A DNA stretch of 64,000 bases from Rhodospirillaceae bacterium (GTDB taxonomy: Bacteria > Pseudomonadota > Alphaproteobacteria > JAEUKQ01), in assembly GCA_016722635.1 (NCBI GenBank), contig JADKIX010000003.1, forward strand, positions 411,543 through 475,542, given 5' to 3'. The stretch's first letter is position 1. Every line of letters starts with the position of its first letter. Positions 2,221 to 13,873 of the stretch are shown piece after piece. The notes under the pieces were generated by a model, which did no database searches, was not told where the DNA came from, and was given only the letters and a program-made list of their open reading frames with translations. Position numbers and translations under genes: made by a program.

Positions 2221-3009
2221 ATTATAGAGCATCCGTGTGGAAAAGGAAGCTATAACCATTCATAATTGTCGTCAATTCGCCCGCATCTATTATAGAGCAT
2301 CCGTGTGGAAAAGGAAGCTATAACCCTATGAAAAATTATGAGCCTCAACGGTTATTATAGAGCATCCGTGTGGAAAAGGAAGCTATAACTTTAAATTATA
2401 AAGATTATAGAGCATCCGTGTGGAAAAGGAAGCTATAACTAAAGAATTATTTTGATCGAAATATATTATAGAGCATCCGTGTGGAAAAGGAAGCTATAAC
2501 AGCCTGGATGATGTCCAGCAAGCCTTAAACATTATAGAGCATCCGTGTGGAAAAGGAAGCTATAACGTTTCTGATTTAACGGTGGCCGATTGCATTATAG
2601 AGCATCCGTGTGGAAAAGGAAGCTATAACCATCATGTATTATAGGATATCCCTATATTTATATTATAGAGCATCCGTGTGGAAAAGGAAGCTATAACAGT
2701 GGTTAACTTGTCATCAATAAACACTGCGGCAATTATAGAGCATCCGTGTGGAAAAGGAAGCTATAACTTAGGCAGATTTCATACATTATAGAGCATCCGT
2801 GTGGAAAGGAAGCTATAACGCGCAAATTAGCTTGGCCGATATTATAGAGCATCCGTGTGGAAAAGGAAGCTATAACTCAAATATCTTGGCAAACGCCGCT
2901 AATAGCAATTATAGAGCATCCGTGTGGAAAAGGAAGCTATAACGGCTGTTAAGAGCCGGAAAAACATTGTCGTATTATAGAGCATCCGTGTGGAAAAGGA
3001 AGCTATAAC
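2221..3009 (-). CRISPR. CRISPR array with 13 repeats and 12 spacers. The plus-strand 36-bp repeat is ATTATAGAGCATCCGTGTGGAAAAGGAAGCTATAAC and the crRNA sense is probably the reverse complement GTTATAGCTTCCTTTTCCACACGGATGCTCTATAAT.
   Basis: Repeats sit at 2221, 2289, 2354, 2404, 2465, 2531, 2594, 2662, 2732, 2785 (35 bp, one A deleted), 2841, 2908 and 2974. Spacer lengths are 32, 29, 14, 25, 30, 27, 32, 34, 17, 21, 31 and 30. The reverse complement closely resembles the N. meningitidis II-C repeat (GTTGTAGCTCCC...CTACAAT) and ends in TATAAT. Confidence 0.95.
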
Positions 3010-3027
3010 TTATAGCGAGACCAATGT

Positions 3028-3056
3028 TTGATTTTATATCCTAAAAGTTGTATAAT
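3028..3056 (+). promoter_or_regulatory. Near-consensus sigma70 promoter TTGATT-17bp-TATAAT pointing away from the array
   Basis: TTGATT at 3028-3033, exact 17-bp spacer, TATAAT at 3051-3056. The predicted TSS is about 3063, directly upstream of the degenerate repeat / anti-repeat. Confidence 0.6.
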
Positions 3057-3062
3057 TTCTTT

Positions 3063-3207
3063 GAGTTATTGAGCCATCCAGAAAAGGAATAACCCCTGAC
3101 CTGCCCCCAAATTCTAATCCAGGAGAGAGTAGAGTGTTGCCGTGGTTATAGACGGTGGTGGTAAGACCATCAATGATTGATCAGGGGGCATGCCCCCTGA
3201 TTGGTTT
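3063..3207 (+). ncRNA. Candidate tracrRNA. The anti-repeat is at 3068-3093. The body may be interrupted by, or chimeric with, the IS remnant that begins at 3097.
   Basis: ATTGAGCCATCCAGAAAAGGAATAAC is an imperfect copy of the plus-strand repeat. It would pair with a minus-strand crRNA repeat leaving bulges, as in tracrRNA:crRNA duplexes. A promoter lies just upstream. A perfect palindrome ATCAGGGGGCATGCCCCCTGAT followed by TTGGTTTG at 3179-3207 could act as a terminator, but it lies inside the IS remnant. Confidence 0.3.
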
Positions 3208-3561
3208 GCAGGGTTTGACGGATTTTATCGTTGAGGCTTTCGGTGTAGCTGTTTGGCTGCGGCTTGCCCGGCGCGATATAATGTTAGTCGATGCTTTGCG
3301 CTGACGCTCAGATCAGAACGGCCGCGCTGGTCAGTTCCGGCCCGTTGTCAGAGATAATCACCTGGGGCTTGCCACGCATCTGTACGAGCCGATCCAGCTC
3401 ACGCACGACACGTAGCCCCGGCAGGGAAGTGTCCGCACTTTAATAATCTGTTCTTCCGTAAATCTCTTCTTCATAGGTCTGTTCTTTCTGCCCTGTCTTA
3501 AGGGCCTTGATCTATACCAGACCCTCCTCTATTTTGGACTAGTTTATTGGGGAGCAGGTCA
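3097..3561 (-). mobile_element. Decayed, internally deleted IS3-family (IS407-group-like) insertion sequence remnant with both terminal inverted repeats
   Basis: TGACCTGCCCCC at 3097-3108 and its near-perfect inverse GGGGAGCAGGTCA at 3549-3561. Between them on the minus strand are an orfA-like start MKKRFTEEQII and an orfB-like DDE C-terminal region. Local GC is about 60% against a host GC of about 42-45%. Confidence 0.7.
3170..3474 (-). pseudogene. IS3/IS407-family transposase remnant. The orfA 5' end is fused by deletion to the orfB 3' region, which carries two in-frame stops.
   Basis: Minus-strand translation gives MKKRFTEEQIIK... then ...ELDRLVQMRGKPQVIISDNGPELTSAAVLI*ASAQSID*HYIAPGKPQPNSYTESLNDKIRQ. 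The rve motifs (SDNGxEFTS, HYIAPGKPxQN..ESFNG.R) are recognisable but interrupted by TGA and TAA. Confidence 0.7.
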
Positions 3562-3826
3562 AATATCGTTCCTGAATTCGTTTCTTAATCTGCTCTTTCT
3601 CATAACGTCCTTTATAACACTTTCTTCGTCATCTAGGACAGTCGCCGAAATTTTTCATCGGGAAAGATAAGCCTAAAATTAAGATATCCTAGTTGCCTGG
3701 AACCAGAATCTTGACTATATTACAACCTGTCCGTTTTGGATCCCATATAAGAATGATCTATCGGTCACATCGTTATGGGTTTTTGAATCATTTAGAATAG
3801 GTATAATGGCTTAGATAGGATTTATC

Positions 3827-4390
3827 TTGTTTGCAGATTTGGAAGCCTGTACAGCTCTTGTCCTTAATGCCGATTTCCGGCCGCTTAGTTATTTTCCTTT
3901 ATCATTATGGTCCTGGCAAGATGCCATTAAGGCCGTTTGCCTGGAAAGGGTTCATATCCTTTGCGAATATGACCGCTATGTCAGCAGCGCGACCCTCCGC
4001 ATGAAAATCCCCAGCGTCATTGCTTTAAGGGAATTTATCCCCCTATCCCGCAAGCCAGCTTTTACCAGATTTAACGTATTCTTGCGCGATTGTTTCACCT
4101 GCCAATATTGCGGCACTCCCCATAAGGCCGCAGAACTGACCTTTGATCATGTCATACCTAGGTCAAGAGGGGGAAGAACCAATTGGGATAATGTGGCAAC
4201 CGCTTGCCAAACCTGCAATATGAAGAAAGGCAACAATCTGCCAGAGGTAAGTAGGATGATCCCGCTGCGCTATCCCAAAGAACCAAGCAGTTGGGAATTA
4301 CAAGAACAGGGGCGTTTTTTTCCGCCCCATCACCTGCACCAAAGTTGGCGGGACTTTTTATATTGGGACAGCGAACTCGAAGAAAGCTAA
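3827..4390 (+). CDS. HNH endonuclease family protein (TTG start at 3827; exact start uncertain)
   Basis: HNH motif CQYCG...DHVIPRSRGG..NWDNVATACQTCNMKKGN. It is about 187 aa, the conserved alphaproteobacterial small-HNH architecture. Confidence 0.75.
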   Translation: MFADLEACTALVLNADFRPLSYFPLSLWSWQDAIKAVCLERVHILCEYDRYVSSATLRMKIPSVIALREFIPLSRKPAFTRFNVFLRDCFTCQYCGTPHKAAELTFDHVIPRSRGGRTNWDNVATACQTCNMKKGNNLPEVSRMIPLRYPKEPSSWELQEQGRFFPPHHLHQSWRDFLYWDSELEES

Positions 4391-5440: not shown

Positions 5441-5476
5441 AATTTTCTCCTTACAACCACTATGATGTTTTTCTTA

Positions 5477-6079
5477 TCATAAAAAAGCGATACTGGCAAA
5501 ACCCGCAATAATTAGGATAACCAGCAGCAAAATGCTTAGCCCACGATAACGGGCCATCATCAGATGGACATATGTACCATAGCGATAAACCAGAAACCCA
5601 ACAATTATAAATCGCAGTCCCCGCGTCAAGATCGACATCCCCAAAAATATCCGCCAATCGAACCCCGCTATGCCGCTGGCTATGGTTATCAATTTATAGG
5701 GGATGGGGGTTAACCCTTTTAAAAAGATAATCCATACACCCCATTCCGCATAGATCTGCCGGAACCTTGCCAAGTCCGATTCGAACCCATAGGTACGGAC
5801 AACCCACTGGCCCAATGTGTCATATAACCAAGCCCCGATGCCGTAGCCGATCATCCCACCCACCACCGATCCAACCGTGCAGGTAATCGCCCACCGCACC
5901 CAATGATTAGGACGGCCTATAACCAAAGCAATCAAAAAAATATCGGGAGGCAGTGGAAATATCCAGCTTTCAAAAAAGGCAAAACAGAAAAGGTAAAAGC
6001 CAGCCCACCGGTGCTCCGCCCACCGCGTCATCCGTTGTTGGAAAGATATCTTCTTTGATGGTATGGCCTGTTCGTCCAT
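5477..6079 (-). CDS. DedA/YqaA family inner membrane protein
   Basis: Hydrophobic 200-aa protein with YqaA-like signature residues (WIFPLPPDIFLIALVIGRP). Confidence 0.6.
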   Translation of the reverse strand: MDEQAIPSKKISFQQRMTRWAEHRWAGFYLFCFAFFESWIFPLPPDIFLIALVIGRPNHWVRWAITCTVGSVVGGMIGYGIGAWLYDTLGQWVVRTYGFESDLARFRQIYAEWGVWIIFLKGLTPIPYKLITIASGIAGFDWRIFLGMSILTRGLRFIIVGFLVYRYGTYVHLMMARYRGLSILLLVILIIAGFASIAFL

Positions 6080-6100: not shown

Positions 6101-6928
6101 TTATTCGCTAACCCTGTTTTCTAAATCGCCAATATGGCTGATAGTGATTTTTATATGGTCGCCCGCCCGCAGGAAGCGCGGCGGATTAAAGCCCATGCCA
6201 ACGCCTGCCGGTGTGCCGGTCGCGATGATATCGCCCGGCTGCAAGGTGATTCCCGCAGCCAAGGTAACGATTAAGCTTGGGATATTAAAAATCATTTTTG
6301 AAATGCTGCTTTCCTGACGTAATTCCCCGTTGACCCAACATTTAATTGTTAAGTCTTGCTGGCCAATTTCTTCTTTGGTAACAATCCAAGGACCCATGGG
6401 CAGGAAAGTATCCAGGGATTTCCCCAGGAACCATTGTTGATGGCGTTTTTGGATATCCCGCGCTGTCACATCATTAGCAATCATATAGCCGAAAATATGC
6501 TCATCCGCTTGCGCCAGGGTAATATTTTTGGCCGTTTTGCCAATAACCACCGCTAGTTCTGCCTCATAATCGATTTTTGAGCTTAAATATTTCGGCAATT
6601 TGATGGATTGGTTGGGCCCAATAATACAATTATCTGCCTTGGTAAAAAAAATAGGGTATTCGGGGACAGCATCCCCGCTGACAGCTGTTTGGCTGACTTC
6701 CTTCAAATGCTCGTGGTAGTTTTTCCCCACACAAAACACATTGCGGCCAGGTTTGGGGATGGGCGCTAACAGCGTGATTTGGCTAAAAGGGATCGATGGC
6801 GCTTCAAAAGATGTTTTTTGCTTGATAATATCCATCATATCGAACGCCAACGGCTTAACGGTTTGTTGTCCTAAATCAACAGCCCCGGCCAATTGCTGAC
6901 CTTGGTATAAGAAAGTCGCATACTTCAA
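6101..6928 (-). CDS. Fumarylacetoacetate hydrolase (FAH) family protein
   Basis: 275 aa. FAH-fold motifs (GKNYHEH, DYEAELAVVIGK, GDIIATGTPAGVG). Confidence 0.75.
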   Translation of the reverse strand: MKYATFLYQGQQLAGAVDLGQQTVKPLAFDMMDIIKQKTSFEAPSIPFSQITLLAPIPKPGRNVFCVGKNYHEHLKEVSQTAVSGDAVPEYPIFFTKADNCIIGPNQSIKLPKYLSSKIDYEAELAVVIGKTAKNITLAQADEHIFGYMIANDVTARDIQKRHQQWFLGKSLDTFLPMGPWIVTKEEIGQQDLTIKCWVNGELRQESSISKMIFNIPSLIVTLAAGITLQPGDIIATGTPAGVGMGFNPPRFLRAGDHIKITISHIGDLENRVSE

Positions 6929-12223: not shown

Positions 12224-13873
12224 ATGCTAAAATTTCTGACAAAGATAAATTTTAAAAATCGGCGATCGAGGCTATCCCGACGCATATTACTGATTAACTT
12301 GCTTGCCTTACTGATCCCGCTGATTGGTATTTTGCAAACCAATAAATATCGGCAAACTTTAATTGAACGGGAAGAAAATGTTTTGGAAACCGACGCCAAG
12401 ATCTTCGCTGCAGCCTTGGCCAGTACTGCCATTATTTGGGGTGAATTTGGCGAAGAACGTTTATCGCCTGAGCTTGCACTCGCCGCGCTCAAACGTTTAG
12501 AAAGCATATCGGGGCATCGGGCCAGGCTATTTGTTCCAGGTGGGATATTGATTACCGATACCGCAGGGACTTCTTTTGCCAGCAATTCCATCCAAATAGA
12601 AGTCCTGCCTGACCCATCCTCCCTGGGTGATTTCAACGATCTGCTGAATTCCCTTTCCTCTTTCATGTCATATTTAACGTTTGAAAATCAAAAACTGGAA
12701 ATGTACCAGGAATTCCCCATCCAAACCGCTAGCAATTATCCCGAGGTTGTCCAAGCCCTTGATGGCCAAAACAGCCATATGGTACGCCAAAACAGCTCCG
12801 GGCAATTAATTTTAACGGCGGCTGTCCCGGTCCAGCTTTACAGGCGCGTGCTAGGGGCTCTTTTATTATCCACGGATGGCAGCAATATTTCCTTGGCAAT
12901 ACGGCGTTTCCACATGGATATTTTGTTGGTTTTTTTGATCAGCCTGTCCGTGACCACCCTTTTATCGTTTATTTTGTCACAGACCATTGCAAGACCCATC
13001 CATCAATTGGCAAAAGCGGCTGAAGAAGTGCAAATACTATATTCCTCGCCAGGCAAGCCAGACCGAAGAAGACGCCAATTGACAGCGGCCTCTATCTTAT
13101 CGTCTGCTGTGCCTCATTTAACACATCGACGGGATGAAATCGGCTATTTATCCTTATCGTTGCAACGGATGACGGAAGCCTTGCGAGATCAAATCGACAA
13201 TATGGAACGTTTCGTAGCCGATGTTTCCCATGAATTCCGCAACCCCTTAACTTCCATGCGTAGCGCTTTAGAAAATTTGGCACGGACACCGCTTGCGGAG
13301 GCCGACCAAAAAATGATTTCTATCGTTCAAGAAGATATCGGCAGGCTCGATCGCCTAATCCACGATATTGCCGAATCATGCCGGTTGGATGCCGAATTTT
13401 CTAAAACTCCGCCTGAATTGTTTGATTTATGCCATTTGCTTAACACATTTGTCCAAATTAACAGACAGGTTAGCGCCCAAGCTTTCATAATCCATGTTCC
13501 ACCTACTCCATTACCGGTTTACGGCCACCGGAATCGATTGGCCCAAGTTTTACAAAATTTGGTTGAGAACGCCCAATCCTTTAGCCCGGAAAATGGAAAA
13601 ATTTATCTCAACGCAGGATCCACCAAATCGGATATATGGTTTTCCGTTGGCGATGACGGGCCGGGCATTGCGGAAGAAAATCTTGAAAAAATCTTTGAAC
13701 GATTCTTTTCGTTGCGGCCCAACCAGGAGAAATTCGGTACACATTCAGGCCTGGGATTAAGCATATGCCGCCAAATAATTGAGGCCCATGGCGGCTGGAT
13801 TGTTGCTCAAAACCGCTCCCCTGATGGCTCCCAGGCAGGGGCCGTTTTTACCGTTACCTTACCTGCAATTTAG
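12224..13873 (+). CDS. chvG: Sensor histidine kinase, ChvG/ExoS/BvrS-like
   Basis: Two transmembrane segments and a periplasmic domain. HisKA H-box VSHEFRNPLTSM. HATPase motifs (GDDGPGIAEE, GLGLSICRQII). Confidence 0.85.
   Translation: MLKFLTKINFKNRRSRLSRRILLINLLALLIPLIGILQTNKYRQTLIEREENVLETDAKIFAAALASTAIIWGEFGEERLSPELALAALKRLESISGHRARLFVPGGILITDTAGTSFASNSIQIEVLPDPSSLGDFNDLLNSLSSFMSYLTFENQKLEMYQEFPIQTASNYPEVVQALDGQNSHMVRQNSSGQLILTAAVPVQLYRRVLGALLLSTDGSNISLAIRRFHMDILLVFLISLSVTTLLSFILSQTIARPIHQLAKAAEEVQILYSSPGKPDRRRRQLTAASILSSAVPHLTHRRDEIGYLSLSLQRMTEALRDQIDNMERFVADVSHEFRNPLTSMRSALENLARTPLAEADQKMISIVQEDIGRLDRLIHDIAESCRLDAEFSKTPPELFDLCHLLNTFVQINRQVSAQAFIIHVPPTPLPVYGHRNRLAQVLQNLVENAQSFSPENGKIYLNAGSTKSDIWFSVGDDGPGIAEENLEKIFERFFSLRPNQEKFGTHSGLGLSICRQIIEAHGGWIVAQNRSPDGSQAGAVFTVTLPAI

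Follow-up and report, generated by a model that had tools for sequence, protein, structure and literature searches.

Directly behind the CRISPR array of this type II-C locus, a good match to a bacterial promoter is followed by an imperfect copy of the array repeat, and an insertion sequence begins almost immediately afterwards. Does this arrangement represent a tracrRNA gene, and has the insertion silenced the CRISPR system? An earlier note on the same DNA had proposed a candidate tracrRNA that was either inactivated by the insertion or now ended inside it as a chimeric transcript, with a degenerate terminal repeat of the array as the fallback. We examined the 64,000-nucleotide stretch of DNA that holds the locus (the window) together with related contigs that cover the same region.

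The window opens inside cas9. The 3′ part of the gene, from codon 766 to the stop, occupies 1–897 on the plus strand in a frame that is open from the first base, and makes up the final 298 codons of a 1063-aa type II-C Cas9. This portion aligns in frame with the full gene on contig L004 (6810–10001) and matches the Pfam profile CjCas9_PI_CTD. On the same strand follow cas1 (897–1784), a 295-aa ORF whose exact protein product recurs on public contigs and is annotated there as Cas_Cas1, and cas2 (1857–2162; Pfam CRISPR_Cas2, E = 2.6e-16). The window also contains an addB of alphaproteobacterial type.

The array lies at 2221–3009 and comprises 13 repeats of 36 nt, recognized from the sequence itself and by weak matches to Rfam CRISPR-DR34. 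Read on the plus strand, the repeat is ATTATAGAGCATCCGTGTGGAAAAGGAAGCTATAAC; in the crRNA sense, on the minus strand, it is GUUAUAGCUUCCUUUUCCACACGGAUGCUCUAUAAU. This reverse complement (GUUAUAGCUUCC...GCUCUAUAAU) terminates in a perfect TATAAT −10 box and is similar to Neisseria-type II-C repeats, which likewise carry a TATAAT −10 box at the end. Since the repeat is Neisseria-like with a terminal TATAAT, and since the DR34 matches (weak and sub-threshold) fall on the minus strand only, the assumption of minus-strand crRNAs is sound; the directions of transcription are inferred. The earlier note was right both in assigning crRNAs to the minus strand and in reading the segment behind the array in the plus-strand sense.

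Between cas2 and the first repeat, at 2186–2209, the minus strand can form a hairpin, AACCCCC-N10-GGGGGTT, after which it continues with TTTTTGCTTTTTT. Compensatory stem changes in L023, L024, L025, L027 and L028 accompany this structure, which is likely an intrinsic terminator for read-through on the crRNA strand; our terminator scan missed it because the loop measures 10 nt. The flank that contains the hairpin may have a leader function. Spacer lengths in the window array (2257–2973) are irregular, at 32, 29, 14, 25, 30, 27, 32, 34, 18, ~20, 31 and 30 nt, and the repeat at 2785–2819 lacks one A. All 30 spacers of the related arrays (L004, L015, L016, L024, L027 and L028) are 30 nt long once the 2 nt taken per spacer by the search pattern are restored. 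The irregular spacers of the window may reflect genuine decay, or they may have arisen in the assembly, as a consensus of strains with differing arrays.

The segment at issue, TTATTGAGCCATCCAGAAAAGGAATAAC, was reported as an imperfect repeat copy at 3068–3093. It is real and slightly longer: end-to-end repeat alignment places it at 3066–3093, 28 nt that match the repeat better than any other site outside the array in the window. Relative to the 36-nt plus-strand repeat, the segment has lost 4 nt at two places, gained 1 nt at a third and carries two substitutions. Among 12,687 background windows, taken from both strands and scored under two schemes, not one reached its score, and for this reason we regard the segment as repeat-derived. 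That an unrelated AT- and purine-rich sequence merely came to look like the repeat by chance is extremely improbable: two observations lean that way, a local alignment score barely above the best background value (23.5 versus 23.0) and a duplex energy that many random sites equal or exceed, but the segment is the top non-array site under both schemes, its alignment runs from the first to the last position of the repeat, and it sits beside the array in the same orientation as the array repeats.

The predicted RNA duplex of the segment with a crRNA repeat has an energy of −22.4 kcal/mol and begins with 5 bp, a 4-nt bulge and then 8 bp; a perfect complement to the repeat would pair at −62.5 kcal/mol. 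The segment is ~2.8 sd below the average energy, but random sites that equal or surpass it through G-U pairing are numerous in the window, and duplex energy was therefore dropped as a discriminator.

The decisive comparison lies upstream of cas9, outside the window. The exact Cas1 protein look-up returned nine public contigs, of which four extend upstream of cas9; the contigs are 98.4–100% identical to the window over the shared cas9–cas1–cas2 stretch, and metagenome contigs with at least 99% identity to the window span the complete locus. (A Cas1 homology scan of genome contigs recovered only distant loci, at 37–43% identity, which were of no use for comparison.) On L004, a type II-C tracrRNA is encoded on the minus strand at ~6640–6745, 65 nt upstream of the cas9 start and divergent from it. 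Its promoter, TTGACT-16-TACTAT, is followed by CUUAUAGAUUAUCCGUGUGGAAAUGGUUGCUAUAAU-AAGAAGAAAUUCGUGGGUUCCUCCCGCCGCAAGGCGGGAUACCCUAU..., and its anti-repeat measures 36 nt. The sequence is identical in L004, L005 and L007, and L006 differs at one position in the 500 nt compared. With the repeat, this anti-repeat forms a predicted duplex of −44.5 kcal/mol, in which stems of 8 bp (guide-proximal) and 14 bp flank an internal loop. In the co-folding check that the earlier note had suggested, the segment thus gives −22.4 kcal/mol, set against −44.5 kcal/mol for the element upstream of cas9. The terminator scan called no canonical terminator at this tracrRNA.

A Cas9 homology search added five closer relatives at 63–89% identity (L023, L024, L025, L027 and L028), and all five carry the same tracrRNA in the same place. 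Across the six loci the −35 element TTGAC is invariant, the junction ...AUAAUAAGAAGAAAUUCGUGGGUUCC... and the hairpin are essentially so, and anti-repeat:repeat pairing ranges from −41 to −49 kcal/mol. Four of the 11 base pairs of the scaffold hairpin show compensatory double changes, and none is broken. The anti-repeat also tracks the repeat of its own locus, with CACACGGAU/AUCCGUGUG changing to CACACAGAU/AUCUGUGUG and GUUAUAGC/GCUAUAAU to GUUGUAGC/GUUACAAU; a G-C pair of the central stem becomes A-U in L024, L025 and L027, and an A-U pair of the first stem becomes G-C in L024.

On every criterion that can be applied in silico, the element upstream of cas9 is a predicted tracrRNA, and from the near-identical contigs we infer that the genome of the window carries the same one. 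It resembles the tracrRNA of the Neisseria meningitidis type in having its own promoter, an internal loop beyond the first 8 bp of pairing, the ...GCUAUAAUAAG... junction and a conserved hairpin; the junction of that type, which we take to be GUUGCUACAAUAAGG, is nearly the same. We found no Rfam family for it. It is a previously uncatalogued type II-C tracrRNA family that belongs to a clade of ~1063-aa Cas9 proteins known from metagenome contigs and one NCBI assembly. Its position agrees with the literature (PMC3737331): most anti-repeats of type II-C loci are located upstream of cas9, and loci of one Cas9 subcluster share their tracrRNA position. The earlier note had itself named, as grounds against its proposal, a canonical tracrRNA elsewhere whose anti-repeat pairs better, with the region upstream of cas9 as an example. 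Such a tracrRNA is found exactly there, covarying in five relatives; by the note's own standard the tracrRNA reading of the segment is refuted, and neither its IS-inactivated nor its IS-chimeric form is supported.

We then built a covariance model (R1) from the six tracrRNAs, which it scores at 104–126 bits. Because the anti-repeat resembles the plus-strand repeat, the model also matches the 13 true repeats of the window (10.6–29 bits; at least 17 bits for 11 of the 13). Over the 64 kb it matched nothing besides these true repeats. With filters off and E-values allowed up to 10, it did not report the segment at 3066–3093, and, again with filters off, it revealed no scaffold remnant over 3010–4200. 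There is likewise no Cas9-binding scaffold 3′ of the segment, where the inverted repeat of the insertion sequence starts 3 nt on. Compared with a type II-C tracrRNA, the window candidate is alike only in strand sense and in having a promoter match; it differs in that it lacks a scaffold, pairs weakly, is not kept in relatives and goes unmatched by the clade model.

The insertion sequence on the right of the segment was the second element of the original proposal. An IS3-family end, TGACCTGCCCCC, does start at 3097, 3 nt past the segment, as had been described; the element behind it, however, is not intact. Its inverted partner, with one mismatch, ends at 3562, so that inverted repeats, reading frames and Pfam matches together delimit an internally deleted, inactive remnant of 466 bp (3097–3562, minus strand). 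Between its two inverted repeats lie ~13 codons from the start of orfA and a piece of the orfB integrase core interrupted by stop codons. Read on the minus strand, the orfA start MKKRFTEEQII... is fused to the orfB fragment (...RGKPQVIISDNGPELTS...PGKPQPNSYTESLNDK...), with stops in frame; the fragment matches Pfam rve and rve_3, and the remnant shares ~70% nucleotide identity with IS3-family transposase genes on alphaproteobacterial plasmids. The TG...CA ends, the inverted repeat, the orfA start and the rve fragment are those of an IS3-family element, presumably of the IS407 group, to which we assign it by its inverted-repeat sequence. Unlike a functional member of the family, it is only 466 bp long, has internal deletions and in-frame stops, and lacks a target-site duplication (CCCC on the left versus AATA on the right).

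Directly right of the remnant, at 3827–4390, lies a stand-alone HNH endonuclease gene (187 aa; Pfam HNH/HNH_5) that is kept in all strains. The genes on this side differ from those next to the array in L023 and L028, in both of which a tRNA gene follows the array. Since no target duplication is present, the locus probably did not originally continue into the present right flank, and given in addition the different right-hand genes, the remnant probably marks an old rearrangement. Every contig that extends this far carries it in identical form, and the arrays on these contigs are largely or wholly different; the remnant is an old, fixed feature around which the array has since turned over. No IS-free allele was found: every contig reaching the region has the remnant, and an exact 25-mer scan of JGI metagenomes came back empty.

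These observations bear on a more elaborate version of the tracrRNA proposal, in which the segment belonged to a former second or ancestral tracrRNA gene whose scaffold was destroyed when the IS3-family element inserted after the anti-repeat, the anti-repeat having decayed since. A good promoter match directly upstream, the tracrRNA sense of the segment and the abutting insertion would all fit such a history. So would the literature: other type II loci are known in which the tracrRNA lies downstream of the array (PMC3737331), and an origin of tracrRNA from degenerate terminal repeats has been proposed (Chylinski et al. 2013; PMC3737331). We nevertheless consider it very improbable. This species and five relatives already have a conserved, covarying tracrRNA upstream of cas9, the covariance model detects no trace of a scaffold to the left or right of the insertion, and no relative has a tracrRNA-like element after its array. 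The insertion also lacks a target duplication, so that the right flank is probably not what originally followed, and the genes there show no synteny with L023 or L028. A heptamer (AAUUCGU) that the true tracrRNA shares with the DNA to the right of the insertion was also considered and rejected, being at chance level and without homology support from the covariance model.

The promoter match deserves closer attention. The earlier note had read TTGATT-17-TATAAT at 3028–3056, and this site is indeed present on the plus strand, matching the sigma-70 consensus at 10 of 12 positions. At least 10 of 12 positions are matched at 19 sites on the two strands of the 64 kb (128 kb of sequence), among which 3028–3056 is the sole site to combine a perfect TATAAT with 17-nt spacing. 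From these counts, the chance of finding such a site in this particular ~60-nt stretch is roughly 1%; the stretch is AT-rich (32% GC versus 45% for the window). The match is placed ~5–10 nt upstream of the segment, as it would be for a real small-RNA gene. It may be fortuitous or it may fire, and nothing that we see in the sequence indicates that any transcript from it would serve Cas9. A second promoter match on the plus strand, TTGGCT-18-TATAAT (10/12), lies at 3253–3282 inside the remnant, antisense to the transposase fragment. At the segment itself, the promoter scan found no promoter on the minus strand.

Downstream, the remnant contains a perfect 22-nt palindrome, ATCAGGGGGCATGCCCCCTGAT, at 3180–3201. 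The scan flags it as terminator-like on the plus strand, but its U-tract (TGGTTTG) is weak, which makes it a weak terminator candidate. Two short metagenome contigs, L017 (1–61) and L019 (1–38), which match window positions 3180–3240, begin with an inverted copy of the sequence next to this palindrome; they are almost certainly fold-back chimeras at the 22-nt palindrome, that is, assembly artefacts.

Promoter and palindrome together would delimit a live chimeric small RNA of ~140 nt, weakly paired with crRNA repeats, whose role might be that of a decoy, a modulator or a nascent tracrRNA paralogue. To this we assign a small probability. Besides the promoter match and the terminator-like palindrome ~120 nt further on, it could appeal to the favourable co-fold of the segment with the repeat (ddG ~ −10 to −14 kcal/mol) and to the 100% conservation of the whole module in all strains seen. 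That conservation is uninformative, however, because the strains are ~99% identical throughout, and the pairing is half as strong as that of the true tracrRNA and breaks after 5 bp on the guide-proximal side. The weak U-tract, the missing Cas9-binding scaffold and the absence of the module from relatives also stand against such an RNA.

A related and similarly doubtful idea, to which we give little credence, is that the trailer repeat has itself gained a real sigma-70 promoter from which transcription leaves the array and runs into the insertion, yielding an RNA of ~140 nt that has a weak anti-repeat and ends at the palindrome. If true, this RNA would be a snapshot of a tracrRNA-like gene arising from a decaying terminal repeat, or else a decoy for the crRNA repeat. 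The scaRNA of other type II systems contains a degenerate repeat in the crRNA sense that is able to pair with tracrRNA. In Francisella and Neisseria, scaRNA is a small RNA with its own sigma-70 promoter, linked to the type II locus (PMC13431127). The window candidate is like it as a small-RNA candidate with a sigma-70 promoter of its own and linkage to a type II locus; it is unlike it in that the promoter match would drive transcription in the opposite (tracrRNA) sense and has no minus-strand counterpart.

Comparison between strains also indicates which end of the array is old. The cas2-proximal spacer is different in all four strains compared (the window, L004, L005 and L006). At the other end, the distal-most spacer is common to pairs of strains (window and L016; L004 and L015) and the next spacer inward differs. 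The flank on the cas2 side (the hairpin and ~14 nt) is conserved across all relatives, and the distal flanks are unrelated between species. Acquisition on the cas2 side, with the distal end as the old trailer, would be the usual meaning of this signature, which comes here from a sample of four or five strains. Array turnover does not in turn prove that the tracrRNA functions, because in N. meningitidis the loss of tracrRNA raises spacer acquisition (PMC12477760).

Mutated terminal repeats at such an end have precedents. [quoted passage not shown] Like these type II-C trailer repeats, the segment lies far from the acquisition end and at the transcription-upstream end, in repeat orientation, mutated and truncated. 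It is unlike usual trailer repeats in being far more decayed (28 of 36 nt left, three indels), in its distance from the array and in the strong promoter match upstream that points away from the array. Since 56 nt, and not the ~30 nt of a normal spacer, separate it from the last full repeat, which ends at 3009, the segment is not simply the next unit of the array. The intervening trailer stretch (3010–3065) is identical in all strains examined (L004, L015 and L016) and possibly consists of an old spacer plus decayed array material; it shows no homology to the distal flank of the sister species (L028/L029). We also tried a second, more decayed repeat at 3031–3056, in which the TATAAT of the promoter match would be a relic of ...CTATAAC, and discarded it, because 49% of random windows align at least as well (score 3.5).

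In the relatives, a promoter followed by a degenerate repeat was found after the array in none of the four with a readable distal flank (L027, L028, L029 and L030). Two candidates in L028 were rejected: homology of its post-array flank to the window trailer, as 18–33% of controls match the window equally well, and a putative degenerate repeat, as 5% of background windows match the repeat to the same degree. Elsewhere in the clade, the state of the locus varies. L023, with a Cas9 that is 69% identical and the same guaB-side context, retains tracrRNA, cas9, cas1 and cas2 intact, and its array has collapsed to a single repeat (12498–12540) mutated at both ends. In L029, a strain of the sister species, a lone perfect repeat (5468–5503) stands between the guaB-side and tRNA-side flanks with no tracrRNA, cas genes or array; the module is either there or missing as a unit. 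The tracrRNA–cas9 locus of L025 (2645–7833) adjoins an island with integrase, Prim-Pol and PriCT_2 genes, a context which suggests that the CRISPR module moves together with a mobile element or alongside one.

Taken together, we conclude that the segment at 3066–3093 is very probably the decayed last repeat at the old, cas-distal trailer end of a Neisseria-like type II-C array, and not a tracrRNA. It was thus the fallback of the earlier note, a degenerate terminal repeat, that the evidence came to support. Two points speak against this reading, the gap of 56 rather than 30 nt and the better-than-chance promoter match. In the scenario that we favour, crRNAs would be read from the minus strand, starting from the −10 boxes within each repeat and running towards cas2, and new spacers would enter at the cas2-proximal end. 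With entry on that side, the distal end would hold the oldest material and be free to decay. The working tracrRNA would be the product of a separate, divergent gene just upstream of cas9, equipped with its own TTGAC −35 box, anti-repeat and scaffold hairpin. The IS3-family element would have landed beside an already dead repeat, later have lost most of its interior and now be fixed in the species, presumably without having disrupted anything needed for CRISPR function.

It had been suggested that the insertion bears directly on whether the CRISPR system still works. Inactivation does not follow from it, because the cas genes and the tracrRNA are intact and the arrays differ among strains that all carry the remnant. 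As far as the sequences of cas9, cas1, cas2 and the tracrRNA can tell, nothing here suggests a dead CRISPR-Cas9 system.

For tracrRNA prediction, the locus is a cautionary case, in which a promoter and a degenerate repeat beside an array mimic a tracrRNA gene and the real one lies elsewhere. At the same time, tracrRNA, repeat and locus layout are now defined for an uncharacterised clade of ~1063-aa type II-C Cas9 proteins from uncultured bacteria. The tracrRNA and repeat data of this clade are sufficient for the design of single-guide RNAs, which makes them modestly useful.
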